In this document: piece after piece, positions 10,601 through 39,380 of the stretch
Position numbering within the stretch: position 1 is the stretch's first letter
Layout of the letters: each line of letters begins with the position of its first letter
Source of the DNA: Psammoneis japonica
Lineage: Eukaryota
Assembly: GCA_008632985.1 (NCBI GenBank)
Contig: QPGO01000352.1
Span: forward strand, 1-46,885
Reading direction: 5' to 3'
Length of the DNA: 46,885 nucleotides
Notes under the pieces: generated by a model
Told to the model about the DNA's origin: nothing
Databases searched by the model: none
The model's input: the letters and a program-made list of their open reading frames with translations, nothing else
Position numbers and translations under genes: made by a program

Positions 10601-11040
10601 TGCAGGTCAGAGAACACCAACAACAAACAGTTGGAGTTCGCCATTGGCATGTTGTTGGGACAAAAGCAGAAGCTTTGTCCTCCACTGGCTACATCAATGA
10701 AGTGGCACGCATGCAAGAAGCGTCAGAAAATGGCAGCTGGCAAGAAGGGATTCTTCGATTTGACCACCCACATTGCCGATGACATCGTTCTTTGTCGGTT
10801 GACAAACAATCATTGCATTGCTTTGCATGGTGGTTGGATCTTTGACTCCAATCATGAATTCGCTCTTCCGGCAAAAGACATTCAGTGGTTGAATTGGTGT
10901 TCAGGGAATGAAACATTTGAAGCAGATGCACTGGCAGAAGATCCAAAATCAGCAGCGGAGGAAGCAGTTTTTTTTTGAAATGCCGAAGGCTGTCCAAACA
11001 AGGTTGCGCAAACGCAAGCGGCAAGACAATGCAATCACAG
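7639..11040 (+). pseudogene. Large multidomain relic: acidic N-terminus, GNAT-like domain, C-terminal papain-like (Cys/His/Asp-Asn) domain
   Basis: 942-aa frame 8150-10978 plus frameshifted flanks. TIVDCVRVDRG..NHGLCPFLISLAQ..MLHCQVKLKQCCCETLGF reads as GNAT motifs A/B once Tyr is restored (DYV; YYETLGF). QQGEKDTCMFLSLA..NHCIALHGGWIFDSN resembles a papain-fold catalytic set. Confidence 0.5.
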
Positions 11041-19840: not shown

Positions 19841-20499
19841 TGGAGAGACGAAAGTGCACCTGACTCCAATGTCGAGAGCGACGAGACGAACGAGAACGAG
19901 AATGACACAGACAATGAAGAAGAAGAGGGCGGCGACATGTAAAAGAGTGCTGGTGTAGCTGGTTTGGAAGCCGTCGCCTTGGCAGCATCAAAGTTGAAAT
20001 GGTCTGTCGTCAAGACGGATGATGACGACGACGCTGGTGCAGGTCAGATGGAAAGCTTGGGTCAAACAGACCCCTTCAGCACCGATGCACCTCAAAGACA
20101 GGGAGAAGGAGGAACTGGTGCTGCACCGCCAGCGTGAGTTTTCTCATGCGATGCATTTGACTTGGCATGATTGAATTGAAAAGTTTTCCCACTGACTTGT
20201 CGTGCACTCACTGTTCTCAATGCCTTGCCTTGGCGCACAAGCAGTCGCTCAGCAAATGGCGGTTCAGGCTGCAGCAAACACAGCCACTGCAGAAGCTACA
20301 ACAGCTGCGGCTGCAGCCGGAGGGGCGACGGCCACTGGCTCAGGGGTTGGAACAGGTGCCATCGTGGCGTCTGTGGTTGCTGCCACAGCTGTTGTTGCCG
20401 CCCCCTGTCACATCTGGGGTGGTTCTGACTGAAAACAGAAAGAGTGCAGCGGCCACTGCCGCTCCGGAAGGCTTACAGTGCGACGTAATCGAACGCATC

Positions 20500-20660
20500 A
20501 CCAGGGCTGCGTGTGTCAAGGTTTTGCCTCTACACATTTTAAACAAAAAGGATCCAATCATTGTTGGTCTTAAAGTTACGGAAGGGAACCTGTCAGTTAT
20601 CGGACTGACATTGTTGTTCGTAGCGCTGTGTAGACTGTGTATGGAAACTCGAGTCATTAT
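20500..20660 (+). pseudogene. Short degenerate fragment resembling eIF5B domain IV
   Basis: ACVKVLPLHILNKKDPIIVGLKVTEGNLSV resembles the eIF5B segment PCVLKILPxxxFNKKDPIxxGVxVxEG. No other eIF5B parts nearby. Confidence 0.55.
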
Positions 20661-21138
20661 GACCGCGATGATTTTGGCGGTTGTGTAGAAGCTACGTGGG
20701 AACTTGGTACACGGTTGGGAACCAATATTTGAATTTTGTCTCATTCCAACCGTCGGAACCAGCGCAGTCGATTTTTGACAAATTCGGCCGATTCCCGACG
20801 TAGAGCCACGTAGGTATATACCAGTGTTCCGGGAACCGGCCGTCGCGTTCCCGGAGTGAGCGATACACATGATATGGCACTGGAGGGTCATTTCTGACTC
20901 GTAGAAATCTACATGTTGTCTGGTATTGAAATTCAAAAAGTGCTCTCGACCCAACGGTGGTTCCTGCACATGCTGGCTACGACAATGTTGTGTAGGTCTC
21001 TGGTATGTGACGTCGCAGAGTTCAATCGTGTTTGAATGCCACAAACCGATACTGACTGTGAAAAAGCATACATAAATAAATAAACATATAAACAGAACCG
21101 CCTAATTAAAATAAATATACATCTATATGTATGTACAA

Positions 21139-21154
21139 TATATATATATATATA
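21139..21154. repeat. (TA)8 microsatellite in an AT-rich island
   Basis: Directly visible. Confidence 0.95.
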
Positions 21155-21322
21155 AAGCAAACCCACGAAACGACACCGCGATCGAGAGGCCGTCACCGTC
21201 GACCATGGCGTCTTCCAGCGGTCCTATACGAAGAATACATCACCAGGATCACTCAATAGAGATCCATGTTAATGTATTTTGTTGGTCTCTGTGTTGCGTC
21301 AGTCCTCTAACTGACAGGTTCC

Positions 21323-21558
21323 TGTGGAAACCGGTCAGTCACGTGGACGCGTCCTCACCTTTGGGTGCGCTTCGGCATCGGGGACCTCCGCCTCAGCGCC
21401 CCCTCAGGTTCGGCCGCTCCGGCCTCTGTGGAATTTGTACGGGAGAACCGGCACTCAGCCTGCCGGCTTTGTGACCGGTTCCGATGACCTCAGCTGACGC
21501 TTCGGTCATTCCCGCACAAATTCCGCGTCGGCTGGCCAGTGACTGAACGGTTTCCACA
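21323..21558. repeat. 236-bp foldback unit bounded by 20-bp TIRs (TGT...ACA)
   Basis: TGTGGAAACCGGTCAGTCAC versus GTGACTGAACGGTTTCCACA (19/20). A nested inverted pair (GTGGAATTTGTACGGGA / TCCCGCACAAATTCCGC) lies inside. No TSD found. Confidence 0.65.
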
Positions 21559-21595
21559 CATGTTCTCAAAGTCGGTGCTAACGTTGTGTCTCCCA

Positions 21596-21757
21596 TGCAA
21601 GGTCTAACAAGACAAAGACTTCAGTGACAACAAAATTGTGAGCAAAAGACCGAGGTAACGAGGGTCGCTTTCAGCGAAGCCCGTCACAACGGCTTCCGTC
21701 ACATCTGGCAGGTTCATTGACACCACACATCAGAAAAACAAGGTGCGAGACACTGCA
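21596..21757 (-). repeat. 3' LTR (162 bp)
   Basis: TGCAAGG...CACTGCA; aligns without gaps to 26774-26935. Confidence 0.95.
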
Positions 21758-21770
21758 CTCTTCCCTTCCA
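21758..21770 (-). other. Polypurine tract
   Basis: Minus strand TGGAAGGGAAGAG immediately before the 3' LTR. Confidence 0.85.
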
Positions 21771-21869
21771 TGATTCGAGTGTCGAGAATCATGCGGAACT
21801 CAAAAAATTTAAATTCCAATGGATGAGGATAGAAGGGAAACCCAAATGTTGGGGAGAAAACCCTCAACC

Positions 21870-24800
21870 TCAGGTGCGATGCGGTGCGACGCGACGCATG
21901 TTCAATCGTTCTGTCACATGAGGTGCACGTTGGACCGTAAGCGTGCCGTTAGCGTGCACTTGAACGACAGGATGTGGACCGTGAGCTCGTGGCTCGAGCT
22001 TGGTTGGGTCGACAGCCTTGAGCAGAACTTGTCCGCCAACTTGAAAATCGCAGGATCGGCGTTTGGCGTTGGCTCGATGGAGATTCGCATTGACAATCGC
22101 TTGTCGGTGTTCTTGAATGGTGGCAAGATCGGCTGGGACCGGCAAGTCAAGAATCATGTCACGTTGAAAAACCATGGCACCGGGTGAAATCTTGAGAGCA
22201 CGAGAAACCGCACATCGCATTGCATGCATGGCGGTTGCCAATGCATTGTCCACCAGTTGACCAGCCTGCTCAACATTCTGTGGAGGACAAACATGAAGCA
22301 AAGTGTGCAAGACATTTCCAACAGTTTGATGCATGCGCTTGCATGCCGCATTGGCTTGTGGATTTCGCGACGCAGTCGGAGCGTCTTCCACTCCTGCTCA
22401 TTGCAACAACAATTGAAAGTCCTCTCCAATGAATTCTCCGCCATTGTCATGGATGCACCGGTTGGGACGAGGACAACGAGACAACCAACAATTTTCAAAT
22501 TGTTGAGCAATGTGAGACAAGGTTTTGTTGTCGATGCGAATGAGTTCAGTCACATTCGAAACGGTGTCAACACAAGTCAAAGCATTGAATTCGATTTCAT
22601 GGTTTTGAATTTCAATTTTCCAGGGACCGATGAGGTCAACCGCAACTTCCGTCCATGGCAACAAAGGCGCTTCCCGTTCAGGTGGGTCCCCACATCCAGG
22701 GCCTAAAGTTTTCAAATGTTGACAATCAGCACAATGAAATCTTTCACAGGATTGACGAAGGGCAGGATTGCAGAAATGTGCGCCAACAGTGGAATGCATT
22801 TGGTGCACTCCTGCATGTCCCAAAATCCCATGATGCCATCGTATGATGTCATGCAGCAACGCCGTTGGAACACAAATTTTCCACGCAGTCGGAGGATCAT
22901 TCGGTCGAGCACGATGACAAATTGCAGGACGCTGATTCACACATTCCACAACGAAGCGTTCTGGATGTTGTTGTTGCACATTGTTCAGCTCCACGTCGAC
23001 GAATTGGTGCTCTTGAATTCGTTGCACAGTTGCAGGGTTTTGCATTTCCTCGAGAGAAGGATGGTTCAAAAATGATTCGCACAATTCGGGGTCGTCCACG
23101 ACAGAAGAGTAAAATGGAGATGGTTCTTCACGACGACAGGAAAAATGAGACACACGGTTTTGGTCGTCCAGTTCTTCTTCATGCGGTGGCATGGCAGGGT
23201 CGATCGCCTTAAAATCAATCAGCTTGCCCTTGTCAGGAGCACACTTCCCTTCCGCAGGAGGGTCCATGCACGGCAATCTTGAAAAACAATCTGCCAAGAG
23301 ATTGTCTTTGCCATCAACGCATTCGAAAGTTGGGGCAAAATCTTCCAAGAAGAGTCGCCACCTAAGAACTCGTTGAGAATTGAGCGCACGAAAGGTGAGA
23401 TTTTTATGATCCGTAAAAACAGCACAGTCAGCTCCAAATGACATGCTTCGAAATTCTTTGAAACACATTGCCACCGCCAACAATTCTTTTTCAATCGTAG
23501 AGCAGTTCTGTTGTGCTGCGCTGAGTTTCCGGGACCAGCAAGCCACTGGTTTCCCGTCTTGCATGATTGCGGCTCCCATCTGATAGTCCGAAGAGTCAGT
23601 GTAAACATGGAATGGCTTGTTGTGATTCGGGTAGACCCAAAGGGTGTCATCCAGCATCAAGGTTTTCACATCTTCAAAGGCTCGTTGACATTCAGGGGTC
23701 CATTCCAACTTGCTCTTGCCTGTCAACTTCGTGAGTGGAGCGAGCACGTGTGAGCGACGAGGCCACATGTTGCGACAATGAGTTGCTGCACCGACAAACG
23801 ATCGCAGTTGCGTCATGGTTTTAGGTGGTTGCATTCGTAGCACCGCTTCCACTTTCTTCTTCCACGGTCGGGACTCCTGCAGGCGTGAGCCAATGGCCTA
23901 AAAAATCCGTCTCTTGGACACACCATTCGCACTTGAGTGGGTTAATTTTCAGATTGTTCTCTTCTAGTCTGGATGACAGCTCATCGAGTCGACGCATGTG
24001 AGTGTCAAACGAATCATCAAATTGAGCAATGTCATCGATGTAAGTTTCAACATCGATTCCTTTCACCACTTTTTCAATGATGGCTTGAGCAATGTCGGGA
24101 GAGGTTTTCAAACCCACACAAATCCTTGGATTCTTCGTCAAGTTCGATGTGATGATAAAACACAGTGAGGTCCAACTTGGTCAAGTGCTTGCATCCCGAG
24201 CGTCGGTGAACAACGTCTTGAATGATCGGTGGAGGACAGACCTTTCGCTTGAGCACCTTGTTCAACTCTCGAAAATCGGATGCCCATCGAACTCGTCCAT
24301 CCTTTTTGGGAGTTGCAAAAGTTCCGGCTGCCCATTCAGTTGGTCCCACTGGTTCCAGCACGCCAATGTCACACAGATGTCGCAGTTCTTTCTTGAAAAC
24401 GGCTTCATCCCTCTTGGACACTTCATGAGCCTTAGAATGGAAGGGAACAGCGTTGGGATCAACTTCCAAGTGAACAGTCTCATGCGGACATTTGCCAAGC
24501 ATTCCATCAAAGAGGGTTTCATGCTTTTCAAGCACAGCCTGCAGCTCATCACGTTGTTCTTGAGTTGAGTGAGTTTGAGCTTGCGCCACTTTCGCGGATG
24601 ACACTTTCTTGCATTTGGCGTCCATCACAAAAGATTGTCCGAAGGCTTCCTCATCATCTTCGTCCTCTCCGTCGTCTTCCAGTGCATCCAACCAATTCTG
24701 AACTGAGTTCCAATGATTGGATTGCTTCATTGGGATCGACGTTTCCAACCACTTTGTTGTTCCAAATCGAAAATCAAGCACGATTCCGGCTTTTGACAAA

Positions 24801-25306
24801 AAGTCTTGTCCCAAAATTAAATCACACTTGCATGGGGCATCAAAAACTTGAGCCGCAATGCTGTCGACTTGTTTTGACTTGTCAAATTCTGGCAACATCA
24901 AGTCCTTCACAATGACGCATCAGGAGGATTCACATTGTCCGGCCACCGTCTGAAAGCTCAACCGTCCTTCATCGTTCATGGTCGGATTCGCTCCCTTCGG
25001 CAAAACTCAAGAATGAACAAGAGTGTCAGCACCTCCTGAATCCAATGGCACTCGTAACACTCGCTTGCTCTCTTGATTTTGAATGGCACGCGCCGCCATC
25101 AACGTCGTTGGCACCACATTCAGTGGTTCAGGAGTCGCAGTTTTAGGGGTTGGCACAGCGCACTCCAAAACGCCGCCCAATTTTTCTTCATTCACAGCAC
25201 AAGATTCCATCAGGTCTCCCACATTGTCATCAACATTAAAACATGTGTTTTCTTCACAATCACACGAAACATGAAAAGATTGAGCGACACGCTCTGACTC
25301 GGGCAC
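21870..25306 (-). pseudogene. pol: Gypsy pol (protease, RT, RNase H, integrase), frameshifted, with a short RT deletion
   Basis: PLDSGGAD (PR); RWASDFRELNK, TKLDL, YIDDI (RT); YTDSSDYQMGA, TDHKNL (RH); H..GH..C..C, DLIGPW, HDNG, PQANA (IN). The segment between EESKDLC and GLK is missing. Confidence 0.95.
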
Positions 25307-25318
25307 TTCCGTCCCTTG

Positions 25319-26707
25319 TCAATTACGCCAACTTCGTTGGCCTTGATGGGTGCGACCGTTCTGATCGCACCCATTTCCACCTCGCATCTCACGAGGCCCT
25401 CCTTGATCAAAATGGTGCGACTCCATTTGCCAGCCACCAGGAGGCGCTGCTCCAGCCGGATTTCCATAGCCTTGGGTGTCACCATTGGCTTGGGTGCCGT
25501 TTTGATTTTGACAACAGGATCCATTCCCTTGAGAATTCTGGGAGTTGTCACAATTGCCGTAACCTCGGCCCCCATGTCCTCCTTGATTGCCACAATTGCC
25601 ACGTCCTCGACCTTGGAAGTCACCATGACCGCCTCGACCTTGGGGTCCTCTGCCTTGGCAGTTTCCTCGACCTCCACCACGGCCTCCGCCACGACCGCCA
25701 CGATTGGACCTCGGCCGATGGTTTCGGCTTTCTGGATTCAAAATGCAATCCTTCCACTTGTGGTCGTGATTCGCATGCACCGGGCATCTAGATTCTGGAT
25801 CCGTTCTGCCACCATTGCCACGAGAGCGTCTTGAAGCTTGAGACGAAGCACCATTGCCTTTCCTCTTCTTGTCCTGCTTCTTGTTGCTGCTCTTGTCAGC
25901 AAAAGATTTCTCGTTGTTCATGTGACTGATGATCTCAGCGAGAGTGTCGTTCGCTGTCGCTCATCCTGCTCGAGCATGCATCTCACGCCACGGACGAGGA
26001 AAGCTGTCAAATGTCATCTTTTTCTTCTGAGCTTTGTTGACTTGAGGAGCATTTCCCGGAAGTTTGTTGGAGTGCCGAATCAAGGTTTCCATGCGATCTG
26101 CATGCATCTGCACTTCAGATTTGAATGGTTTTTTCAAAGTCAGCAAATGTTCAATCATCGCATCACGTGCTTCATCATCACAATGAGACAAGTAAAAACG
26201 ATTGATTTCCTGATCAAAACGCTCGACAGTTTTGTCGGCATCGTCAATTGCATTGGTCAAGTTCGCCCACTTGTCCTCTGCAGCATCCGCGAGCACTTCC
26301 TCGAAATTTTCGAACAACTCCTCGCCAGTGGCATGCTCCAATTTCACAGCAATTTTATGAAAACGATCCTCAACGAATGACAATGCTTCAATGCCATGAG
26401 TGCCATCAAAACGCGGACACTTTTTTGTACGAGCACTACCGTCATCATACGATTGGGTCAATTTCACTTCCTCCAAGTCAGAATGCTCAAATTTAGCTTC
26501 ACAGCTGATGCAAGGCTCCTTCAACGATCCACTCATCATGAAAAAGGGAATGCAATTGTTCAACAGTCCTCTCCAGGGACTCTGCCTTTGACTCCAAATG
26601 ATGCACTCGGCTCGCCAAATTCTGTTCGTGTCATTTACGCTGTTGCACTTGTTTCTGGTGCTCAACAGCCCAAACTGCTGCTCTTGCGCGTAGTTCTCTT
26701 TTCTCAC
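25319..26707 (-). pseudogene. gag: Gypsy gag relic
   Basis: Upstream of the protease; CPRFDG..E motif, a CPVHANHDHKWKDC zinc-knuckle variant and an RGG-rich tail. Confidence 0.8.
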
Positions 26708-26773
26708 GTTTGGTCAATTTGTTCGCATTGTTCCTGGTCTCCATCCAGTTCTTTGAATCGACTGCAATTACAG

Positions 26774-26935
26774 TGCAAGGTCCAACGAGATAAAGACTTC
26801 AGTGATGACAAAATTGTGAGCAAAAGACCGAGGTGACGAGGGTCGCTTTCAGCGAAGCCCGTTACAACGGCTTCCGTCATGTCTAACAGGTTCATCAATG
26901 CCATGTGTCAGAAAAATGGGGTGCGAGACACTGCA
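26774..26935 (-). repeat. 5' LTR (162 bp)
   Basis: Matches 21596-21757; followed by TSD TCCCA. Confidence 0.95.
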
Positions 26936-27059
26936 TCCCAGCCTTGGGAGGACTGCGCGTTTGGAAAATGACCTCCGTTGAGAGCAACAGCAAGGAGCAA
27001 GAGACCGCTCGCAAGGGTTCGCCCGTGGCCATTGTGATTGTCAATGAAGACTTGCCAAC

Positions 27060-28465
27060 AGTCAATGCTGTCGTCCATTCGATTCGTCTCACGGCGTCGA
27101 CTCGACCCTGACGCGTGCATCGGTCAACGCGCTCAAGGCCAACTTCAAAGACAAGCTCGAGAATGTTGATTGGGGACTTGTTGTTCAGGTGAAAAAGGCA
27201 CTCAAACATTGTTGCAACAGCCAGTGGAGGACATGCGGACCTTGGCACCGTCACATCAACAAACTTACGAATTTTGAATCTTTTTCATTCATCTGTGGAC
27301 GGAGAGTGTTCTAGCCAGCTACTTCAGAATCTCAATTGTTCTGTTGCTCCGCCAGTTCGGCAGAACACTTGCAACTCCCCAACAACAAGTGAAACGACAA
27401 ATCCACAAAAAACAGCAGGCGATGTCAGCGCCGAAATGGTCTGCCGGCAGCACACATCATCTTATGGAGCATGCCGCAACGAACACCCCATTGCGGACCC
27501 CAGCTGAAAAAAGAGAGCAGCGTGGTGACAAATGGACACAACAACATCAAAGCACGCACAACATCATCAACGCGCAAGCGCTACGACCGTCATCGCAGTC
27601 CATTGACGTACGTGCGGAACAGCTTGCACGCAAACAAGGATTGCTGTGTCGCACTTTTGGTCTTTCTGCTTCTGTTGTAAAGGTTCAAAGCGTGTTTCAA
27701 AAAATGTGAAACACACCAACATCAAAAGCAGCTGTTGAAATCGGTTGCGCAGGGTGACGTTGCCTCAAGAGCGCCATCAAAAGATGGCGCTCAAGCTTTT
27801 GCATGTCTTCAGAGTGAAACATCACTAAAAAAAAAGCAAAAGGGGGGGCGCACTGCGGAGACAACAAGAGAACTTGCGAGTCGACCGCGTTCTAAATCAA
27901 CACTCCCTGCGAGTGAAGACTCACCGCATCATGTCACTGATGCGACGGAACCCCAAACCCGCGTTCCGTCAACGGCATGATCTGCTTGGCGAGCTTTTGC
28001 TGCTTCACAGACGAACGCTGCCATCTGTTTCAACAGCCGTGACCTGACGGGTCAAGCGAACAGGCAACTTCCTGCGCTCAAAGACACGAGAGTGACATGG
28101 ACTCAAGGCCGGAGAGACGCACTCGATTTGCCCCGACCTCTGGACTTGACTGGCAACACCTGCGCCACCCAGAGACAACACGCCATCAAGCAAAATGAGT
28201 TGTGGAATGCCAAACAAGAGCGAGCTCTCAATCCAGAGGAAGGGCGAGCCATCCTCGGAGATCACGGCTTCCGGCTTGGCGAACAACAAACACATCGTGT
28301 GAGACGACAGTTGTGATCGAAACGAGAAAGAATTTCCGAGAGATTTTGTTTGTGTCGTGACCGTTGCTAAATTTCTCACTCACTATCATTTTTGTGTATC
28401 TTTGTAGAATTACTACCATGATTTCGTATGTGAAAGATTCGTTGGAACTCGGTACTTTCCAAATT
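27060..28465. repeat. Non-coding repeat backbone sharing three ordered modules with 39400-42059
   Basis: About 27070-27180 matches 39405-39500 and 39695-39810; 27590-27812 matches 41035-41260; 28090-28465 matches 41655-42059. Confidence 0.85.
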
Positions 28466-28663
28466 ATTACTAATTCCTACGTGCACTTTACGGCAACCGT
28501 AGAAAACGCAAAAAAATGTGGCCACGGTGACGTCTTCGTTGTCGCGAGGTCCGAGCTCAAGAATTAGGGCTACTCTCCAACTCAGCATGCACATTCAAAA
28601 TCACATCATGGAATCATTTCAACCATCAAGATCAAGCAGCGTCTTTGATCGCAACGATTGCAC

Positions 28664-29548
28664 ATGAAAGTCATCCGGTGGTGCTGCGTAGTCGTTGGGG
28701 GCCTCCTCTTCCTTGAGAGCAACAGAGCAACGGCTTGGTGTGCAGCTCATTTGTTCAAAAAAGCACGCGGCTTTCTCGGATCGCTTGCTGTTGCCGCAAT
28801 TCTNNNNNNNNNNNNNNNNNNNNNNNNNNNNNNNNNNNNNNNNNNNNNNNNNNNNNNNNNNNNNNNNNNNNNNNNNNNNNNNNNNNNNNNNNNNNNNNNN
28901 NNNNNNNNNNNNNNNNNNNNNNNNNNNNNNNNNNNNNNNNNNNNNNNNNNNNNNNNNNNNNNNNNNNNNNNNNNNNNNNNNNNNNNNNNNNNNNNNNNNN
29001 NNNNNNNNNNNNNNNNNNNNNNNNNNNNNNNNNNNNNNNNNNNNNNNNNNNNNNNNNNNNNNNNNNNNNNNNNNNNNNNNNNNNNNNNGGGACAGTATGA
29101 ATATTCTTTAGCTAAGGATAGCAAGTCTGACAGTGGTAGAATAATGATTCTGGTGGAACCGTACCTGCCGAACGCTGTAGCAAGCATCTCGCAAGTTAGC
29201 ACTCGCGAGGCGCAGCGCTCTGCAGTCCAACAAATTGCTCGAACCCTGGTACAACTGCTTGCCGCCAATACAATTACTATTGATGTCCAGCCTCTCATTG
29301 ACAAGGAGTCTGGGCGTGTCATTTTTGTAGACATGACAGAGGCTCAGTTGCTTACTCCTCCCTTTACATTTCTTGACAGAACGTTAATTTCTTCTTTTGC
29401 AACTGAAATGGCTAATTTAATCCCAGACGAGTACCAAAAGATTGCAATCGAGTCTGTTCGAGACGAGCTAAGAGAATTGCAGTTTACGCGTGGTGAAAAA
29501 CTAGCGGCAGAGGTAATGGGCATACTCGAGGACCAAGAACTTCTTTAG
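28664..29548 (+). CDS. Kinase-like-fold protein with N-terminal signal peptide (spans assembly gap)
   Basis: Hydrophobic N-terminus ending ATAW (possible bipartite plastid signal). The C-terminal part LVEPYL..IDVQPLIDKESGRVIFVDMTEA resembles kinase hinge, catalytic-loop and DFG regions. Normal TA content after the gap. Continuity across the Ns is assumed. Confidence 0.55.
   Translation: MKVIRWCCVVVGGLLFLESNRATAWCAAHLFKKARGFLGSLAVAAIXXXXXXXXXXXXXXXXXXXXXXXXXXXXXXXXXXXXXXXXXXXXXXXXXXXXXXXXXXXXXXXXXXXXXXXXXXXXXXXXXXXXXXXXXXXXXXXXGQYEYSLAKDSKSDSGRIMILVEPYLPNAVASISQVSTREAQRSAVQQIARTLVQLLAANTITIDVQPLIDKESGRVIFVDMTEAQLLTPPFTFLDRTLISSFATEMANLIPDEYQKIAIESVRDELRELQFTRGEKLAAEVMGILEDQELL
28804..29088. 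other. Assembly gap
   Basis: Run of N. Confidence 1.
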
Positions 29549-30245
29549 AGAATGATTTGTCGTGATAATTTTGAGGGTGGCTTTAGTAACACAAAAATAC
29601 TACCGGTACATTGCGCATACCACAGTTTTTCACATATTTTCTAAGAGACTACCGTATTGACTCTTGTTGATCAATGGCTTGGATCCAAGAAAAGGAGAAA
29701 CGCAGAACAAGTGAGTGAGAGTCGCACGTACTGCACGTGATGTCGCCACATTTATTTACTAGTCAAGTCACCAAAATGTACGAAACCAGTTCAGATAATC
29801 GGCGAATGCTCATTGTTGCAAGGAATATGTGAATAGGAGGTATCAAAGCGTAGAGTAATCGATGATTGATACCGCTGCGTCTTGCGGTCACCAAAGCAGG
29901 ATCCGGCACTATCTACTTCTCACCTTTTAGCGCCCAGCACGTTAATCGGCATCAACCAAGCAACTGTGATAGCTATACAAGTGCGAGATAGCAAAAACGA
30001 GTAGGTGAGAAACTTTGACCGTTTGTGCTTTTCATTTTGTGGCTTGCAGTGTCCCCTGCATCTATACCGCTCGTGCCGATGATGGCACACAAGCAGCTCA
30101 AACTGAAGGGGCGCTTTTGATGTTGCAAGGATCGATTGTAATTTGGAGGTACCGTAAAACGTGGGAGTAGTATCGTTTGGGCATCGCTGCGTTTTTGCGC
30201 ATCATTCCAATGTTGTAATCATCGAAAGAACTCACCATGACGAAG

Positions 30246-32911
30246 TCAACTTCCGTAAACTTTTCTTTCCATGGCGTCGGGAAAGCTCGCCACGACGCTT
30301 AGCCACGGTTGTTCCACAACGAGCAACTCATTTGCTTCGAGAAAGTTCATGTGAAGAACGCTATTGTAACGTAAGCAAATGGTCAAGTTGTTCGTCTCTT
30401 GGTCAGAAACTGTTTCGTTCTGGGAATCGTCACTTCGTTCGTCTGGTTTACGACGTTTGACCCCTCGCACGTGCCTTTCAGGGAAAATGCGACAGTGCTT
30501 TGGGATCGCCTTGTCCAAGTCAACAGAACAAAGTGCGCCAAACGATCCCTGCAAAATAAAGGACACAAAAAGCGAAACTGTGTAAGTGATATCCGCTTCA
30601 CGAGATAAAGGACCGTTCTGGATTGTAGCCCCCTACTATACCACGGGTGCATTCTTTCGTGTTGCACAAATGGGCGAAAAAATAAGGGCAGTCAATCTTG
30701 CAAGGGTGACGAGCCTGCACGCCACGAAAAAGACTTCCTTTACCGGCATGACGCAATAACGTTCTTGCTTTGTCATGGCAAGGTGAATCAATAACGTACC
30801 ATTAAAAATTTGTTGGGAGTTGCCTTGTTGAAGGCAAATCGAACCGGGTAATCATTACGACTCGCTAGTTCCTGAGGCAACACCGGCGTAATTGGAAAGC
30901 CAGCTTTCTCGCTCCATTTTGAAAGCGACTTTTTCTTCAAATCAAAGATATAAAATCCGTAGTTGATACACGAAACGATCAACTGTGCCTTCTCTCCCAG
31001 CAAAAAGTCTGCGGTTGTAAATGGGACATCGAGTTTCGGCAGAGTCCAAAAATGCTGATAGAAGCCATCGTTACTTTTCGAAAAGACTTGAATCTCTCCT
31101 TGTTGATTCAAACCATTTTGGCATGCAACAAGCCATTGTCCATCATGCGAGGCACTGAGTTTATGGATTGAGAACAAGCCCATTCTCTGATCTACCACGT
31201 CGTCGGTAGAGACAATATGGTGGTTCTCAACCACGACCTTGTCGCTGTCGTCTTTTCCGAGTTCCACAATAACAATCTTACCATGGATTGTAGCGCAAGC
31301 TAATCGACTCGGTCCACAGAAAGTGACAGAAACACAAGGGAATCTCATGGACGAAGGCAGCGGCACTGGAATTGAATTCACTTCTTTGTCATGTAGGTTG
31401 ATGTCCAACTGAAATATGAGTAGTCCATCCAGCGCATCCGAGACAGCCAAAAAAGTCGCGCCCGAATCCATGGCAGCACAAATGAGATTTGTTGAACTCT
31501 TGATGTTTAACGTGGACAAGACTTCCCCTGCATCTTGATCAGCTACCAGGGATGAAGAAGAATCGTGCACAGGCTGTGACAATTTGAAAAAGTCAATGGA
31601 AGCAGGTCTTATCAAGGCCAAGATTCGGCCGTGCGGCGCCACCGTAATGGGCGACACGCTTGGCCACGGATATATGATTTTCGGGCGATCCTTGGCAAAC
31701 TCTTTTCGCTTGGTGTTGTAGACACACAACTTGGTATCGATACCACCGCTGCACAAGTACTCCTGAGAATTGCCACCGCCATCATGAGCTACAGCCATAG
31801 CCTTGACATCATGTGTATGCGGTCGTTGCGCATGAGTCAAGATCCAATTATTCTTGTGTAGTTGTTTCTCGATACACACCACTCTTGAATCCACCCCACT
31901 CGCAAACACACGCGACTCGTCTCGAGTGGTCGCCAAGCACAATACGTCTGCATGAGAATCATTCTGATTACAACTCGAAATGAGCGTTCCTGTCTTGCCA
32001 TTCCAAAACTGAACATGGCCCAAGGAATCACCCGACACGACGGTATCGCCACCGTGCAAGGCCAAAAGACTCCACGTTAGGGTTGGAGTGGATCTTCCCA
32101 AGCATTCCACCGTCATGCGTAACGTAGACGACCATTTCATACTGCCGTCAGCCAAAGATGAAGAATCATAACGCCGAATGGTTCCATCGGCTACTGCCGC
32201 ATACAAGACAGTACTGTTGTCGTTCCTGCCAGCGATGCGTCTCCATGCAACCGACAATACTGCAGCTCCAGCGGTAGGAATAGTCGACTGCAATTCCAGC
32301 TTTTTCTCGTCTGACACAGAAAAGATACGAACTGCTCCATCTTCACATCCTGCAGCAACATGATTAAAGCATGACTTATACTCGTCGTTGTTTTCGGCGT
32401 GATTGCAGAGACTCGCCAAGCACTGCACACCACCTCCTCCAGAGGAAACAACGCTACGCGCCACACCCTGCTCCCAATCCAACACAGACAAGGTACCATC
32501 CGAGGAAGCACCAACAAGAGTGTTGCTGTTGTTATTGTTCGAACAACGAGTCCAGACCATGGCGTTGATTGGACGATTCGACTGACCGTGAATGGTTGAC
32601 AGCGTGCGCCATTTCTGAGACGGACTTTTTAATTCCACGTGCCCGTTGCTCCGACTCAATGCGACCACGTCTTCTTCCAACAACACGTTATCGCTACTAC
32701 TCCTTGTTGAAACACGTGTAGATGCCATTGCTACAATCGGGGTAGGCTTGTACTCCAAACAGCGAACACGATGAACCGCAACATTTACTTCGTGATCTTG
32801 GATCTGTGGCTCGGGATCATCATGACGAGGTTTCTCAGACTTGTTGCTGGATCTCTTTGAAGACTTTTTCTTTTTCTTCTTCTTTTCACTAGACGACTCT
32901 GTTAACGGCAT
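30246..32911 (-). CDS. UTP4: U3 snoRNP WD40 protein Utp4/cirhin; exons 32911-30800 and 30548-30246
   Basis: VHRVRCLEYKPTPIVAMA N-terminal motif, WD40 repeats, HTHDVKAM, and C-terminal ELLVVEQPW..ERKVYGS. GT-AG intron 30799-30549 in phase 0. Confidence 0.9.
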
Positions 32912-33260
32912 GTTGCTTATATAGAGGGAGAAATGGGAGATGGTTGATGGTTAGTATGGTACTGTAGTTGCAAAAGAAGCGATGTTGTAGCGTGATTTTG
33001 ATGATCTGATCGATTTTCCAGACTTTTGTGTGGATAGCACGCGACACGCGTACAAGTACGTACAGTATGCATACACGCATACGCATACATACATCACTGC
33101 GTGAAACTTCTACGTGGGGGTGACCATTTAGCTGGAATAATTCGACTAAAATTTCTTTTTGCGCGTTCGTCCGCCATCCGAATTCTTCGTGCTTTTTGTG
33201 TGGAGAAAAAATGCCTCCGACCATGGTGAGTACACCGTTGCGACGTCGTCAGTGTTGATA

Positions 33261-33335
33261 TGGGAGGCTGCATCGGTGCTTGAATATCTCTATTATCCCT
33301 ATTAGAATGTATCTATAGTGCGATGCAGCTTCCCA
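33261..33335. repeat. 75-bp unit with 15-bp inverted repeats
   Basis: TGGGAGGCTGCATCG / CGATGCAGCTTCCCA (14/15). Confidence 0.7.
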
Positions 33336-35050
33336 GTTTTGATTTTATGATTCATTTTTACATCACTCGTTCTCATGCTTTTTTGCTGTTGCCGCCGACA
33401 GAGTGCAAAAGTGCCCAACACCTCAGCGGCAAAGGTTTGTGCCAAGGTCACCTCATTTATTGATAGATTTATCAACAGTGAAGTTAGTTTTGATGGTGTA
33501 TTCCCCTGAAAATCATTCTGGCTCGTGAGTCACAATGGAAAGATTGAGACAAGCTGATTCATGATGCTCTTGCTCTCCTTTGAGCAAGTGTTCCTGCGAA
33601 TCGACCACTGGTCATTTCTAAGAGCAGATGGAAGGTGCACTATAAACAATGTTGAAGAGACTCACAGTCAGCTGAAGACACAAGTGCTGTCCCCTGCGGC
33701 GCAACGCCAGTGACAATTGTTCCGCAGGGTTCCTGCAGGACGAAGAGAGTGCACCTTGTTCGTGACGACAGAGAGGCTGGACGCTGCAAATGAAGTGAAA
33801 TAGTTGAAGCTCACTGTTCAAGATCTATCTCTTCTTTAGTTGATGAGGAGAATGATGCAGCAGCCTCACCTGAAGGAACCCATTCATCTGTGCCCAAAAT
33901 GACTGCAACAGTCTCTCCAGACGTGCGCCAATCAACTCGAGCAACCAAGAAGCCACCGCCGACTCATGCCAATCTGCATGACAAGATTAAGCACCATTTG
34001 TCATAAATGGCACTTTAATCGAGCAGCAGTGTTGATTAGGAGATTGCATGATAGCCATGCATTCTCTTTGAGCCTCGACAGCACGAACGGCATGTGGAGA
34101 GCACTGCAATGGAGAATGTGACAATGCATGAGCAATGTGGTGTGGCAACATTGAGTTTTGACATGTCATGCACAGTGCTGTCATTCTAAGCACTCAAAGC
34201 ATTTCTATCTAAGTTCTCACTGTATGTTCCTGTGTGCCTGTGTTCAATCGACAATTTTAAATTCGGGAGCCAAGAATTCCAAAGAATCGTCACCGTGGAG
34301 CATTCGTCGCTTTGAAAATTCGAGGACACAAATGATCCACTAAATGATGTTTAGCTTTGGACGGCGGAAGCAGTCACTTCAAAAAGGCTGCAGAAGCTGT
34401 TGGTTCCCATGTCGCACCGCAACTGCTGCTTCCCAAAACCAACAAGGAATTCTGAGCTGTGAGGAAAAAGGAGCTTCAGGAGAACAATTCCTGATGAGGC
34501 GCTCATCAAAAACCGGTGTGCTTCCTTGCGACAGAAAATGGGGTGCCGGAATCATGGAAGCATGTGTTCCTGGAAGACAAACAATTCGGGGATGAAATGA
34601 GGGCAAACGTTGGGCTCTGCAACACTGGGACACTGTGCGAAGCAATGAATGGCACTTTGCTTGCCTCATCTTCATTTCTGTTGTTCGTTCCGCTGTGCAA
34701 TGATGATGGCATTCCAAAAGCAATGACTGTGCTGTCAACGACTGACGTGTGATCATTTCCATCGTTCGTTCTGATGCTGTGCTGATGGCATTCCCCAAAC
34801 ATGCCGTCAGTTGGAACATCGTTGGTCGTCGGTTTGTTGTTTTTTGTTTTTCAGAGCGGCCATTGATTTCACAACAATTGGCAATGAGCAAGTCATCTGC
34901 ACAACTCGTGGCATGTGCGTCTCGTAACCGAGCGAGGAGCAGACAATGTGCCGGGCCTGCGGCTTCATGGGCCCCTCTTTCATGCAGTGACATGCACCCA
35001 AACCATGCCGTCCGTCCTTCTCCTGTGTCATGACGTCATTGGAAAAGGAA

Positions 35051-35113
35051 AAGGAACCCGGATCCAACCTTTTTTTTGGAAAAAAGGAAAAAAAGGTTGG
35101 ATCCGGGTTCCTT
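35051..35113. repeat. Perfect 26-bp inverted repeat, 11-nt loop
   Basis: AAGGAACCCGGATCCAACCTTTTTTT / AAAAAAAGGTTGGATCCGGGTTCCTT. Confidence 0.95.
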
Positions 35114-35833
35114 GTTGGGCATGCATGACCGAGCGCGCGTGACATGCACAGTAGAAACAAGTGTTTGCACCAGCGTAGAAAACTGCATGTCCACCCAGTG
35201 CTAAAAATTTGGGCCGACAATGAAAGGAGCTTCATCGCGCTTTGTACCAGGATGCGCAGAATTCCACAGAAACTCCCTCCGATGCGTCACTCGCGCTTCT
35301 CGCAAAACAACTCTCATGACAATGCGTGAAACACCGTCGACCGTCAGCATTTTGCGACAATGGCGCCACCCTTTACCGCGCTTTCTGTTGCTGCGATCAT
35401 GCAGTGTCATGTGGTCAATTGCACCCGCATGTGTGACAGGTGATGTGGCATTGATCAAAGCACGTTCGTTGAAGATGAAGCACAAGTCAAAAAGGATTGT
35501 GGGTTTCCACTTGCCGGTGTTGTGAGGGAGACGTTGCGTTGTGATTGCAATTCGCTGGCAGGAGCTCAACTCACCCGCATCATTGCCGGACCAATCGATT
35601 TGTTGGATGAAGACACAAGAAAGTTGGGATTTGGTGATTTGAAGACTCTTGTCAGGTGGATGCTCCTTCGTGTTTGATTGTCTCAACATGCCCTTTTGCC
35701 GGTGGCGGGTTGCGAATGATTGCTGAGTGGAATGCTGTTGATGAACCAGCGATGTTGCTGCAACTCATTTAACACTTGAATGTGTGGAGGCAAGGATGGT
35801 GCCTGCATGAGAGAGTTTGAGAAATGGGAAGCA

Positions 35834-36229
35834 GACGCGTTCCAGACGCAGGTGGGAATCCGTGTGACATTGGGCCCACAGACTTCTACGTGCGAGCTCC
35901 GCAGCAAAATTGTGCGGCAATTAAAATGTCAATGATCGCCAACAGAAAATGAGGCAATTTTGCGAACGCACAAACTCGCACATGATTGAAGCACATCATT
36001 TTTTACTCAGCCAGTTGCACTCTTCAGACATTGAAGAATGCAACTGGCGCATTGTTGTTTCTACAAATTTGTCACACAAAACGTCTGGGGCTTTGCAAAA
36101 CAGCGAGTCTGGACAATTTTTTTTAAATGTCACACGTAGAAATCTACGTGCGAAACATGCTGCGGATGATAAAAATTGTTGTTGTCACACGCCAGTGCTG
36201 CGAGCTCCCACCTGGGGCTGGAGCGCGTC
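35834..36229. mobile_element. MITE copy 2 (396 bp), TSD AGCA
   Basis: GACGCGTTCCAG...CTGGAGCGCGTC; AGCA at 35830-35833 and 36230-36233. Confidence 0.92.
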
Positions 36230-36507
36230 AGCAAAGCTGGAAGATGACAGTTGGGTGAAGGTTGGGTGCATGAAAAGACATCTTTGGTGTTTTTGTTTGG
36301 ATGCTGCTGACATCCCCCCCAATGAAAAAATGCCAATGACACAATCACAGGAGTTGGTGACATCTCCAGCTTGATTTTGATGGCAAGGAGTTGCTGGGTG
36401 CAGCACCGCAATGTGCAAGAGGATGGCATTCACGCCGCAGGTGCAATGACTGCCCTGTGTGTGCAATTTTCACAACAACACAATTGAGGCACATTGCACT
36501 CCTCCCC

Positions 36508-36589
36508 ATGCATCATGGCAACGTGTTGCAGCCTTTAAATGTCACAAAGGTTGTGACAAAAATGACCTTTTGTCTGCATGCATGCTGCA
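36508..36589. repeat. Partial third copy of the 111-bp hairpin repeat
   Basis: CGTGTTGCAGCCTTTAAATGTCACAAAGGTTGTGACAAAAATGACCTTTTGTCTGCATGCATGCTGCA. Confidence 0.9.
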
Positions 36590-37734
36590 CAATGCTTCAA
36601 AATGAATGTCTGTGGATGACAAGCACCCCAGTTGATCACTCAACAATGTCGCCTTTGTTCTCAGACATCATGTCTTCAAAGCTGGACCCAAGCTTCTGCT
36701 CTCTTCTTTGCTTTGTGCCATTGCAAGATGAGAGCAAGTGTGAGTCACTCCCTCTGAGTCACTCCCTCTGCCAACAGAGAGAAGTTGATGTTTGTCCTCC
36801 TGCGTGCCACAAATCAAATCTCTTCATTGCTCGCATCCAACTCTTCCTTCTGTTGCATCCATCATGCAACATTTTGCTCAATGGACTGTGTTGCTTGGTT
36901 CAGGGCCCCACTCATGAGAGAGAGAGAAAGAGTTGTGTGCTCTGTTTCTCTTGAGTGCAAGCCATTTGTGGCCCTCCCGCCACCTCGAACATCCACACTG
37001 CAACACCAAATGTTCAATGCTCGAACGACATTCACCCAATTCGGTTGATGAAAGACAACCCAAGCCGCAATGCTGCTGAACAAAAGCAAAAACTGCTCGT
37101 CATGCCAACTGGGACATTCAATGTTAAAGCAGCACAGACAGAGAACAAATGTGAGTGAAGCCGCCAAAAGAAACAATGCAAGTGCAGTGCCAAAGCTGTG
37201 GGCATGATTGAGACACACCATGCAATCTGCTCTGACTGCGAGAAGCAATTGCTTTCACTCAAGCATGTCTGCATTTCTTCTCTCTGGCATCTGTTAGACC
37301 AAGAAATCTCATGCATGTTCTTTGGACAGCAGCTGTCCAGAGACAGCCTCAGCTTGAGAGGTCTCCTCTCCTGCACCACTTCATTCATCATGAACACTGC
37401 ATCGGTTGACTCAGAAAATTGTTGTTGTGCTTTGATTGGGGTTGCATCTTTGTGTTGTGACATTGAAAGCAACACACTTGTTTCTTCATTCTCATCAAAA
37501 CCCTGATTGTGCACAAGACTTGACAGATGCGGGACAGCTGTGAACGGTTGAACCCAGTGTCATGAGGAGTTTGCAGATTTTTGCTGATTGACTGTTGGGC
37601 AGCAGCTCTGCTTGTGTGATCTGTTTGTTTCCAAGTTGAAAGTTCAGCGGACACCTTGCAGCTTCTTTCACAGCAATGGAAGCAAATCCTGACATGTGAG
37701 ACATTCTTTGGAATCGGTGGCTCAGGCAAAAGGA

Positions 37735-38137
37735 GATGGGTCGTTCCAGCCCCAGGTGGGACTCTGTGTGACATTGGGCCCGTGGAATTCTGCGTGCAAG
37801 CTCCGCAGCAAATTTGTTGAGCAATGAAAATGCAAATGATCGCCAACAGAAAAAGAGGCAATTTTGCGAATGTGTCTCCTCCTTCACACTTGCAGCACAT
37901 CATTGGCAGTTTCTTGCCCGGTTGCATTCTGCAAGTGTCAAAAAACACACCCAGAGTGTTTTCATTCTCACAAATGTTGAAAACAGAAAGCCTTTGGCTT
38001 TGCAAAATGGGGAGTGTGAAACAATTTCGTAGAATGTTGCATGTAGAAATCTGCGCGCGTGACGTGCGACATGATCCAAAAAACTCTTGATGTCACAGTA
38101 CAGCAGTGCGAGGTCCCACCTGGAGCTGGAACATGTC
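37735..38137. mobile_element. Diverged MITE copy 3, probable TSD AGGA
   Basis: GTTCCAGCCCCAGGTGGGAC...GTCCCACCTGGAGCTGGAAC; interior is collinear with copy 2; left tip has about 3 extra nt. Confidence 0.75.
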
Positions 38138-38197
38138 AGGAGCTGTCAAAGCATCTTTGGGCATGAACGGCGCCAGTGACCTGGTCCTCACTGAGAA

Positions 38198-39380
38198 GTG
38201 GAAAAAAGTCCTCCTGTGGAATCTGGCAGATCCACGCCAACTCAGAACAGCCCCAGGGATGTGGCTGAGAAACGTGCAATCAGCGAACCAAGTGGCACAA
38301 ACAACCATCGTGAAAATGTGTCCATCCGCGGTGCCCATTCCAGCATCAACACATCAAGGCATGCTGCTGTCACCAAGTTGACGTGTGTGTTGCAGTCTCT
38401 GGACCAGGCACTTTGCAAGAGGAGACCAGACCAGCACAGGTTCATCATCAACATGGATGATCAGGGAAATCTGTTTGACTGCATGGAGTTGGAATGGATT
38501 CCCACGTTGGCAGAAGCGCAGAGAACCAAGTGCCAGGAACAAAAATGGAGCAACTTGCTCTTGTCTTGGAATGAGAAGACAACAGTTTGACAAGATTCAG
38601 ATGCCAAGGAATCTGACGATGAAGTCTTTCAGGCCTGTGCGATGCTAAAATGTCTTCTTGGATCACCAAACTTGAAAAGCATGACTCTGCAGAAGAGCCA
38701 AGGAATTGCAAAAACTCCAAAGTTGCCCCCATCAATGCTGCTCTAGCATGTCATGGACAAGCACAACTGCAATGAGCCCCATGAGCCCACAGCTCACACG
38801 ACACTGAGGTGGGGTGTTGTCAAGGAATGAATTTCATTGCTGCCACTTTTTTCACCTTCATGTCCAAAGAAGCATTCTGGTTGTCAGTTGGCATGCCAGC
38901 GCCAGCTGGCATTTGCTCTGTTTCCGACGCATTGTTTCTTGCTGCTTTTGTTCCTTCTCAAACCACAGCCACTGTGAATGATCCACCTGACCAGATGCAA
39001 AGAATGTTTGGCAGGGACATGCAAGCAGCACACCAGGTGTTGTGTGTGGCTGACAAACTTTTTCATCAGTTTCTGCCTCATCTTGCCCGGCATTTGGAGA
39101 AGGAGAACATCTGCAACATCATGTGTGCAATGCAATGGTGGTTTTAGACATTGCACATGAGCTCTTTTCACTTTGATTTGGTGAGTCACGTGTGGTTTTG
39201 TTTTGACTTCTTGCCAAGGAATGGCAGGTTGTCTGCCGCATCATGCCGGCACTCATGACATGTTCCAACAAACCTTGGAGATGCTCAGCTTCGAAGACAT
39301 TTTGGCTCACCTTCGCCATCTTTCTGATGTGGTTTCAAGTGAGAAAATAAATCTCAAGCACAAACACACTGCCAGGCATG
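38198..39380 (+). pseudogene. Captured TBC (Rab-GAP) gene fragment retaining an intron (38891-38968)
   Basis: EVGCCQGMNFIAA (cf. VGYCQGMNF), EAFWL, FLPHLARHLEKE, MCAMQW, TLHMSSFHFDLVSHVW, LSFEDILAHLR; frameshifted. Confidence 0.85.

Follow-up and report, generated by a model that had tools for sequence, protein, structure and literature searches.

TpA loss in a diatom Ty3/gypsy retrotransposon and the repeats around it: a probable case of post-integration AT-to-GC hypermutation

The two long terminal repeats (LTRs) of a retrotransposon are identical at integration owing to reverse transcription. In a stretch of 46,885 bp of DNA of Psammoneis japonica (contig QPGO01000352.1, positions 1 to 46,885; the whole of it is called the window below), the LTRs of a single Ty3/gypsy retrotransposon, located at 21596-21757 and 26774-26935, differ at 22 sites, and the question raised by this locus is which process has changed them, at which moment in the life of the element and on which DNA. 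The answer that is held here to be probable is a hypermutation that acted on the integrated element, was directed at TpA dinucleotides and converted AT pairs to GC pairs.

Differences between the two LTRs

A repeat search of 20500-28000, followed by MAFFT alignment, gives a 162-nt direct repeat whose two copies are aligned without gaps at 86% identity, the similarity ending precisely at the repeat edges. Both copies run from TG to CA and are enclosed by a target-site duplication (TSD), TCCCA, at 21591-21595 on the left and, identical to it, at 26936-26940 on the right; because this 5-bp TSD is perfect and the TG..CA ends are present, the element is a single insertion and not a recombinant of two elements. 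The orientation of the LTRs was assigned from the order of the minus-strand domains and from the adjacent polypurine tract: in the sense of the element, 21596-21757 (minus strand) is the 3' LTR and 26774-26935 (minus strand) the 5' LTR. The putative polypurine tract at 21758-21769 (minus strand; reverse complement GGAAGGGAAGAG) abuts the 3' LTR, in keeping with the known anatomy of LTR retrotransposons, and no primer-binding site matched to a tRNA was found after the 5' LTR.

Parts of pol were recognised by Pfam in two minus-strand open frames, one at 24074-24919 with the reverse-transcriptase part (RVT_1, 1.7e-4, below the curated cut-off) and one of 499 aa at 22398-23897 with the RNase H and integrase parts (RT_RNaseH_2, 2.2e-26; RT_RNaseH, 2.4e-25; weak matches to Integrase_H2C2 and rve). 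The order reverse transcriptase, RNase H, integrase is that of Ty3/gypsy elements, and the element is a Ty3/gypsy LTR retrotransposon on the minus strand. The pol frame is broken at 23868-23872 (minus strand) by one base that is extra relative to other copies of the family; in the contig alignment a base near 23870 is missing in all the contig depth found there (946.1 of 946.1, two contigs), and the tblastn reading frame switches between sense positions 3062 and 3066. Homologues of pol number 647 at E<=0.001, the closest being metagenome and transcriptome entries with up to 59% identity and the named ones belonging to diatoms. Within the window, BLAST matches of the LTR are limited to the two LTRs themselves, with no further copy, and the core patterns of the LTR had no match in IMG/VR or in JGI metagenome contigs.

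An earlier reading of the DNA, made from its letters only and called the sequence-only reading here, had aligned the two LTRs by hand and had reported 22 differing bases, all transitions. A script count returned the same result, 22 differing columns of 162 and 22 transitions of 22, and the classes proposed for these sites were also recovered: five sites have TA in one LTR and CA or TG in the other (LTR positions 10, 18, 62, 90, 112), seven are reciprocal, with CA in one copy and TG in the other (33-34, 107-108, 123-124, 126-127, 131-132, 133-134, 144-145), and three are of other types (14, 113, 146). The CpGs intact in both LTRs, given as about eight by that reading, are exactly eight (positions 56, 64, 71, 80, 87, 95, 102, 151), and a ninth, at position 13, is present in the 26774 copy alone. 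The classes made of TA, CA and TG account for 19 of the 22 differences, and all 19 fit a change from TA to CA or TG; the pair shows no transversion, no indel and at most three changes outside TA. Two of these three, at positions 113 and 146, are A>G at an A adjoining the target, with TAA changed to TGG at 112-113 and 145-146 (at 113 the family reads A and the 21596 copy G), and the third, with CA versus CG at position 14, is most readily explained by a single ordinary CpG loss. The differences are concentrated in LTR positions 106-162, which hold 15 of the 22.

Such a spectrum is not that of ordinary divergence in the same DNA, in which the other repeat pairs of the window show 516 transitions and 261 transversions (P=1.2e-4 for 22 transitions of 22). 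Eight diverged terminal-repeat pairs of related metagenome elements hold 205 transitions and 112 transversions, with five CA/TG sites in total, against seven in the present pair alone.

The three outcomes expected for an ancestral TA would be a reciprocal CA/TG site, if different strands were hit first in the two LTRs, a TA-versus-CA/TG site, if one LTR escaped, and no visible difference, if the same strand was hit in both. In the model used for the counts, each LTR loses any given ancestral site with the same probability p, independently of the other LTR, and either product is equally likely, the classes being (1-p)^2 for both copies intact, 2p(1-p) for one lost and p^2/2 for reciprocal sites. 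With a TA ancestor, the counts 0/5/7 give p=0.87 and expected values of 0.3/4.4/7.3 (exact fit P=0.84); with a CpG ancestor, the counts of eight intact, one single and seven reciprocal sites are rejected (exact fit P=2.7e-5). The value of p derived from the LTRs agrees with the body of the element, where 9 of 12 Tyr codons (those kept or turned to Cys/His) are changed, and it would place this copy near saturation, about 87% of the ancestral TpA having been lost per LTR. An ancestral LTR rebuilt with AT>GC changes only holds 12 TA, with an observed/expected ratio (o/e) of 0.94, and 8 CG, and one rebuilt with GC>AT changes only holds 16 CG (o/e 1.28) and no TA; the GC content of the LTR rises from 0.42 in the inferred ancestor to 0.49 at present. 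For the entire element the TA o/e is 0.13, compared with about 0.7 in its relatives; across 77 related gypsy loci of metagenomes it ranges from 0.45 to 1.18, and no locus comes near 0.13. A TATA-box reading of the inferred ancestral LTR at positions 123-134 was set aside, as it rests on the very TA inference that it would support.

The timing follows from the same pair. The sequence-only reading had placed the mutations after integration, separately in each LTR, and this is upheld by one insertion, with its TSD TCCCA and TG..CA ends, whose LTRs nevertheless differ at 22 sites. That either strand was hit, as it had also stated, is seen in the products, which under a TA ancestor are 8 CA and 2 TG in the 21596 copy and 2 CA and 7 TG in the 26774 copy; at the reciprocal sites the + strand has mostly CA in the 3' LTR and mostly TG in the 5' LTR. 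The split of 8:2 versus 2:7 (Fisher P=0.023) implies that the choice of the strand was non-random within an LTR. Read in the sense of the element, A>G prevails in the 3' LTR and, weakly, in the body, and T>C in the 5' LTR; on the + strand of the element, CA has an o/e of 1.55 and TG of 1.29, with a skew of +0.08 to +0.14 in every 1-kb bin of 22001-27000.

The rates in the two classes of sites differ by about two orders of magnitude, with approximately 2 hits per TA site per LTR and no more than 0.011 per other site. Hypermutation has raised the LTR divergence from near zero to 0.136 (Kimura two-parameter distance, K2P, 0.158). The warning of the sequence-only reading that LTR dating would overestimate the age of the element is therefore borne out, since a K2P of 0.158 is accompanied by 0 transversions, 0 indels and at most three changes outside TA; the overestimate is several-fold.

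Loss of TpA in codons and across the window

The direction of the change can be read in the coding part, independently of the LTRs, by aligning 120 homologous proteins to the element (tblastn, sense positions 400-5196) and by scoring the codons that are covered by 40 or more homologues with an agreement of 70% or more. This gives 320 conserved columns, 57 of which are changed in the element. The conserved Tyr residues are the most affected (P=5.7e-7 for Tyr versus all other residues): of 14 columns, three are kept, six have become Cys (TGT/TGC), three His (CAT), one Asn and one Phe. The conserved Arg residues are retained in 23 of 25 columns, the other two reading CAA and CAC, which corresponds to a CpG-type loss in 2 of 25. 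A hand tally of the changed pol codons counts 19 of TA-loss type, 4 of CpG-loss type and no gain of TA, and the losses extend to other residues (Leu TTA>TCA, Leu CTA>CCA, Val GTA>GCA) and to a TA that spans a codon boundary (T|ATG>T|GTG). The Tyr content of the 499-aa pol frame is 0.8%, versus 3.6% in the homologues. A UTP4-like gene of the window, used as a control, keeps three of four conserved Tyr, and none is turned to Cys or His.

The same Tyr-to-Cys/His signature occurs in 2 of the 120 homologues, which come from other data sets. The protein P0095, from a JGI metagenome, carries it at 9 of 10 conserved Tyr columns, contains 0.3% Tyr and is open over 584 aa, and P0009 carries it at 4 of 10 with a frame that remains open; these cases suggest that the TpA process operates in further samples, where its products pass for normal proteins in the annotation. 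In a separate metagenome locus, L005, the terminal repeats (52-1168 and 5071-6188) share 85% identity and show 31 TA-versus-CA/TG differences, no reciprocal site and a TA o/e of 0.84. This locus could represent an early stage of the TpA process or a process like repeat-induced point mutation (RIP).

The loss of TpA is regional and is not confined to the element. The TpA o/e of the whole window, 0.22, is an average over two states: in 500-bp bins it is 0-0.2 in 1-20473, 21309-28367 and 33500-41953, and 0.4-1.0 in 20474-21308, 28368-33499 and 41954-46885. The depleted partition (35,986 bp) has o/e values of 0.09 for TA, 1.59 for CA, 1.60 for TG and 0.65 for CG, with 5.8 TA per kb; the normal partition (10,614 bp) has 0.62, 1.17, 1.17 and 1.03, respectively, with 45 TA per kb. 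The domain edges, placed from the positions of TA, are sharp at the resolution of the 500-bp bins. In the retrotransposon itself the low TA o/e is found together with a CG o/e of 0.89. Windows of 2 kb have TA values of 0.03-0.16 and CA and TG values of 1.3-1.8, and so fall within the cut-offs for TpA-poor windows found in the available text of a report on Bigelowiella natans (bioRxiv 10.64898/2026.01.13.699255).

The surviving TA dinucleotides of the depleted DNA (n=209) are unevenly distributed among their flanking contexts: ATAT is absent, ATAC/GTAT occurs 3 times, GTAC 6, TTAA 38 and CTAA/TTAG 46. Their flanks differ from those of 20,709 TA in 77 related gypsy loci of metagenomes (chi-square P about 1e-23) and likewise from those of the normal parts of the window. 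TpA in the context RTAY (R, purine; Y, pyrimidine) is lost the most and in YTAR the least, and this flanking preference argues for an enzyme rather than for generic damage.

The first depleted domain, 1-20473, is rich in repeats and enriched in CpA and TpG, with bins of TA o/e 0-0.19; it contains dispersed repeats and, at 6428-7664, a tandem array with a 279-bp unit in about 4.4 copies (88% matches). It is followed at 20474-21308 by an island of normal TpA, placed between depleted domains, which includes a (TA)8 run at 21139-21153 and whose open reading frame (ORF) at 20340-21098 (minus strand) found no usable match in the ESM Atlas. This 835-bp island overlaps a segment bounded by 25-nt inverted repeats (20585-20609/21298-21322, 92% complementary), and an adjoining 236-bp segment is bounded by 20-nt inverted repeats (21323-21342/21539-21558, 95%). 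In a public sequencing run, X2, the end of a contig at 21563 runs on into letters like 20559-20588, as if a variant without about 20587-21562 existed. The segments with inverted repeats near 20585-21558 may be young insertions similar to miniature inverted-repeat transposable elements that are still unhit.

The second depleted domain, 21309-28367, comprises the retrotransposon together with its flanks, 287 bp on the left and about 1.4 kb on the right, the right one being repeated in the window and in contigs of the public runs X1 and X2. Next to it, the normal domain 28368-33499, recognised from its TA bins, bears the UTP4-like WD40 gene (ORF 30788-32950, minus strand), whose named matches are all from diatoms at 35-39% identity; a run of 285 N, a scaffold gap, lies at 28804-29088, just within this gene-bearing island. 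The third depleted domain, 33500-41953, is also poor in CpG (o/e 0.2-0.8), and in 36001-41000 the CpG o/e of 0.18-0.5 is lower than in the remaining depleted DNA (0.5-0.9); the depleted domains seem to differ in age or methylation. The window closes with a normal domain, 41954-46885, with a DOCK-type (DHR-2) gene on the minus strand.

The third depleted domain contains a RabGAP-TBC pseudogene fragment at 38785-39144 (+ strand; Pfam 1.3e-13), surrounded by stops. In its alignment with PDB chain 9ltp_A, the five Tyr of the aligned parts of the chain all face His or Cys (H, H, C, C, C), and the fragment is a copy of a host-type gene that has been hypermutated like the transposons.

A further consequence of TpA loss concerns the stop codons. 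On the + strand the trinucleotides TAA and TAG occur 212 and 154 times, versus 1054 for TGA; TAA and TAG are nearly absent in the depleted domains, where frames of 600-960 aa are open in several phases without a Pfam match, as at 8099-10978 (+ strand, 959 aa) and 2306-4159 (minus strand). Pfam, applied to 85 frames of at least 110 aa from these domains, left 83 without a match and gave one weak DUF4512 and the RabGAP-TBC fragment, and no transposon family could be assigned in this way to the depleted DNA outside the element. Long frames without Pfam matches are many because the process removes TAA and TAG and cannot create stops, and the 600-960-aa open frames of the depleted domains are likely false ORFs.

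Agent and alternative explanations

In the mechanism proposed, TpA would become TpG, or CpA when the other strand is hit, so that on either strand the A of 5'-TA-3' would be replaced by G. The process would act on repeat-rich or silenced domains and spare the neighbouring genes, being targeted through the chromatin state or through the recognition of repeats. The agent is presumably an enzyme. A polynucleotide adenine deaminase of the TadA/ADAT kind, working on DNA to give inosine that is read as G, is a tentative assignment that falls somewhat short of an even chance; ADAR and TadA/ADAT favour a U or T 5' of the edited A, according to the available text of the B. natans report (bioRxiv 10.64898/2026.01.13.699255). 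The opposite strand biases of the two LTRs could reflect which strand is exposed, by sense transcription in the body and the 3' LTR and by upstream antisense transcription in the U3 region of the 5' LTR, an account that is speculative.

Other copies of the family are available in public data. The best run, X1, contains 0.39 of the sampled 31-mers of the stretch, and the runs X2 and X3 contain next to none; 1843 contigs of X1 align to the element at 80% likeness or more, so that the family is abundant. Transitions prevail among the variant places (A>G at 192, T>C at 190, C>T at 246 and G>A at 258), transversions numbering 233, and 40 near-unanimous places were listed out of 1125. Within these 40 listed places, TA in the family is TG or CA in the window at 8, and TA is gained at 1. 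The near-unanimous places were rejected as a comparison of CpG and TpA rates, as sites decayed independently in every copy cannot be near-unanimous and the list is therefore biased to slow (CpG) sites. At LTR position 49 (21644 and 26822) both LTRs read A and nearly all the other contigs of the family G (CG to CA); this CpG loss, being present in both LTRs, predates the insertion, and the source copy was already unlike the majority of the family.

Several observations weigh against TpA-directed hypermutation of a single integrated copy as the full explanation. The TA ancestry of the seven reciprocal sites is supported by counts and not by sites read in copies of the family, and CpG losses occur in this copy as well: of the 40 near-unanimous places listed among the 1125, 13 show a family CG that the window has as TG or CA. 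Twelve of these lie within the element and include position 49 of both LTRs. Among the 31 reciprocal sites of older repeats with at least three copies in the window, another copy resolves eight, as CG in five and as TA in three, and leaves 23 unresolved; these counts bear on old repeats and not on the present LTR. CpG decay, then, also runs in this genome and is dominant where the CpG o/e is down to 0.2-0.7. As a statistic, the strand bias is modest (P=0.023), and the codon events of the body, tallied by hand, are 11 of TG type and 8 of CA type. Depletion begins at 21309, 287 bp ahead of the LTR, and the edge of the element is not the edge of the domain. The assembly has an N gap and the family more than 1000 matching contigs, so a mosaic of the inner part of an LTR is possible. 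Lastly, the search that gave the 77 related gypsy loci is biased against hypermutated copies, since one of its three seed patterns requires Tyr; as a guide to the spread of the process, the lack of loci with a TA o/e below 0.45 is weak evidence.

The alternative that survives best keeps the phenomenon and changes its chemistry: the thymine of TpA would be oxidised or otherwise modified, as 5-hydroxymethyl- or 5-formyluracil, and mispair with G to give T-to-C. Thymine modification with a preference for TpA is known from dinoflagellate DNA, and TpA is self-complementary, so that T>C and A>G are inseparable by sequence. An adenine editor fits slightly better, since, of the three changes outside TA, two replace an A beside the target by G (112-113 and 145-146), and the authors of the B. 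natans report, in the text available, favour adenosine deamination without a test (bioRxiv 10.64898/2026.01.13.699255). Thymine chemistry is considered unlikely, but is to be taken more seriously than any of the alternatives that follow.

An artefact is improbable. It would consist either of a TA modification in heterochromatin that is misread or of LTRs assembled from k-mers of different copies, and it draws on the low share of 31-mers found in the best public run and on the abundance of the family, which invites mosaic assembly. If misreading were the cause, most of the differences should restore TA; only 8 of the 40 best-supported places (of 1125) do so. In addition, the public contigs are themselves rich in variants, A>G and T>C among them, the LTR ends of two other copies diverge from the window by 11-15%, 325 pieces show a likeness of at least 99%, and the Tyr-to-Cys/His signature is found in the unrelated JGI protein P0095. 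The 285-base N gap would point to a scaffolded short-read assembly. Mosaic assembly would make it less certain that the two LTRs come from a single copy, and the phenomenon itself would stand.

Methyl-CpG decay, by which the seven reciprocal sites would be former CpGs whose 5-methylcytosine was deaminated on opposite strands, the top one in one LTR (giving TG) and the bottom one in the other (giving CA), is very improbable for this pair, although CA/TG is the classic product pair of this decay. It has a real footing in the genome: 135 CG-versus-TG/CA sites occur among the repeat pairs of the window, old repeat domains have a CpG o/e of 0.2-0.7, the CpG losses relative to the family majority and the five of eight resolvable reciprocal sites with CG in a third copy have been given above, and diatom transposable elements are CpG-methylated, as far as the available text of PMC9998398 goes. 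In the 279-bp tandem array, the CA/TG sites resolve to CG in five cases and to TA in one, and the reciprocal sites of this array come mainly from CpG decay. In the LTRs, this explanation has to reconcile eight intact CpGs and one single loss with seven double losses, which a single rate does not allow (P=2.7e-5), and at 5-10% loss per CpG the expected number of reciprocal sites is below 0.1. It also leaves unexplained the five TA-versus-CA/TG sites, the TpA o/e of 0.13 and the change of Tyr to Cys/His. The sequence-only reading had argued from the intact CpGs against CpG decay, and this argument holds, with the element CpG o/e of 0.89 and the 23 of 25 Arg kept on its side.

Editing before integration is more improbable still. 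Retroelement editing by ADAR and APOBEC is established in animals, and in the present case A-to-I editing would have affected the RNA of the element or its single-stranded cDNA in the particle, where the two LTRs pass through a single-stranded state at different steps; in the body, sense-strand TG is indeed more frequent than CA. Editing of the RNA would leave the two LTRs alike, since by an established mechanism a single template serves for both. The exposure of the plus-strand strong-stop DNA would predict the opposite orientation to the one observed, namely sense T>C in the 5' LTR and sense A>G in the 3' LTR, and DNA that does not belong to a retroelement is equally depleted (the RabGAP pseudogene, the 279-bp array and the 287-bp left flank).

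RIP-like cytosine deamination at CpA (CA>TA, TG>TA), as in ascomycete fungi, has a negligible probability: all the differences are transitions in CA, TG and TA contexts confined to repeats, and diatoms carry DNMT4 enzymes, of unknown function, that are related to the fungal RIP factor RID (PMC9998398, in the text available), but RIP enriches TpA and is excluded because TpA is depleted here (o/e 0.09-0.13, with CpA and TpG about 1.6), nine Tyr codons have turned to Cys/His with no codon gaining TA, and TA is lost at 8 and gained at 1 of the 40 places listed among 1125.

Related systems and significance

The closest known system is that of the chlorarachniophyte B. natans, described in a 2026 preprint that is the only other description of the phenomenon found. 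According to its available text, the mutations that arose within two integrated viral regions of mutation-accumulation lines numbered 231, of which 230 were A>G/T>C, all of those on TpA, and the change of TpA to TpG or CpA proceeds at about 6e-7 per site per generation, in some lines only, de novo mutation being elevated about 1000-fold and occurring in bursts (bioRxiv 10.64898/2026.01.13.699255). Windows poor in TpA and rich in CpA and TpG are clustered in that genome, reverse-transcriptase and DDE domains are over-represented in coding sequences poor in TpA, and an ADAT-like adenosine deaminase acting on DNA is proposed by the authors (bioRxiv 10.64898/2026.01.13.699255). Its main text, in the form available, makes no mention of diatoms, retrotransposon LTRs or flanking context. 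In the literature, no report of RIP or of a TpA process in diatoms was found, as judged mostly from titles and the openings of abstracts.

The two cases share the A>G/T>C change on TpA that gives TpG or CpA according to the strand, its restriction to foreign or repeat DNA in an otherwise normal genome, the clustering of TpA-poor, CpA- and TpG-rich windows and the lack of created stop codons, as far as the preprint text compared goes. The host here is a diatom-like stramenopile, whereas B. natans is a chlorarachniophyte; the targets here are an LTR retrotransposon, tandem and dispersed repeats and a host-gene pseudogene, whereas in the preprint they are giant-virus and virophage inserts. The TpA o/e is 0.09 over 36 kb in the window and 0.45 in the region of B. 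natans derived from a nucleocytoplasmic large DNA virus, where mutation was seen de novo; in the window the process is known from its footprint in the sequence. The timing given by the LTR pair, the flanking preference and the LTR-specific strand bias are new relative to that report.

The process resembles the RIP of ascomycetes as a mutational defence of the genome that produces transitions at one dinucleotide in repeats and on either strand, makes LTR dating unreliable and leaves sharp compositional domains; RIP, however, is a C>T change at CpA that creates TpA and stops, whereas here TpA is destroyed, GC rises and stops are removed. Similarly, the footprints of APOBEC3 (G>A) and ADAR (A>G) consist of deaminase-type, context-biased and strand-coordinated transitions in retroelements, but those enzymes act on RNA or cDNA before integration and leave the same changes in both LTRs, whereas here the LTRs differ and DNA outside retroelements is hit. 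Methyl-CpG decay, for its part, is another source of CpA and TpG and has left its mark on the older repeats of the window (CpG o/e 0.2-0.7); it cannot remove TpA, which is almost gone here in an element with a CpG o/e of 0.89.

If the explanation by TpA-directed hypermutation is true, the window reveals a second, independent lineage in which invading DNA undergoes AT-to-GC hypermutation directed at TpA. The LTR pair with its intact TSD would serve as an internal clock, according to which the process hits integrated DNA and saturates before ordinary mutations build up, and the window adds a map of domains with sharp edges beside intact genes and a flanking-sequence preference that any enzyme model must explain. 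In such genomes the ages derived from LTR divergence would be inflated several-fold and repeat families would give an exaggerated impression of age and diversity; gene finders would call long false ORFs as TAA and TAG vanish, and homology searches would miss hypermutated elements because Tyr is systematically replaced. More broadly, it is conceivable, though rather doubtful, that diatoms, and perhaps the stramenopiles, alveolates and rhizarians (SAR protists) widely, possess a defence based on chromatin- or repeat-directed editing of adenine in DNA, an inverse of RIP, which would prefer RTAY, act on the exposed strand and so give sense-transcribed parts and the upstream part of the 5' LTR opposite strand biases, strip transposons, repeats and duplicated genes of nearly all TpA before other substitutions appear, inactivate them by missense (Tyr to Cys or His) and erase stops, with long spurious ORFs and useless LTR clocks as the result. 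The finding would give a route to the enzyme through the deaminase paralogues of the organism, and it raises the question of whether the editing of adenine in DNA is an ancient eukaryotic defence.

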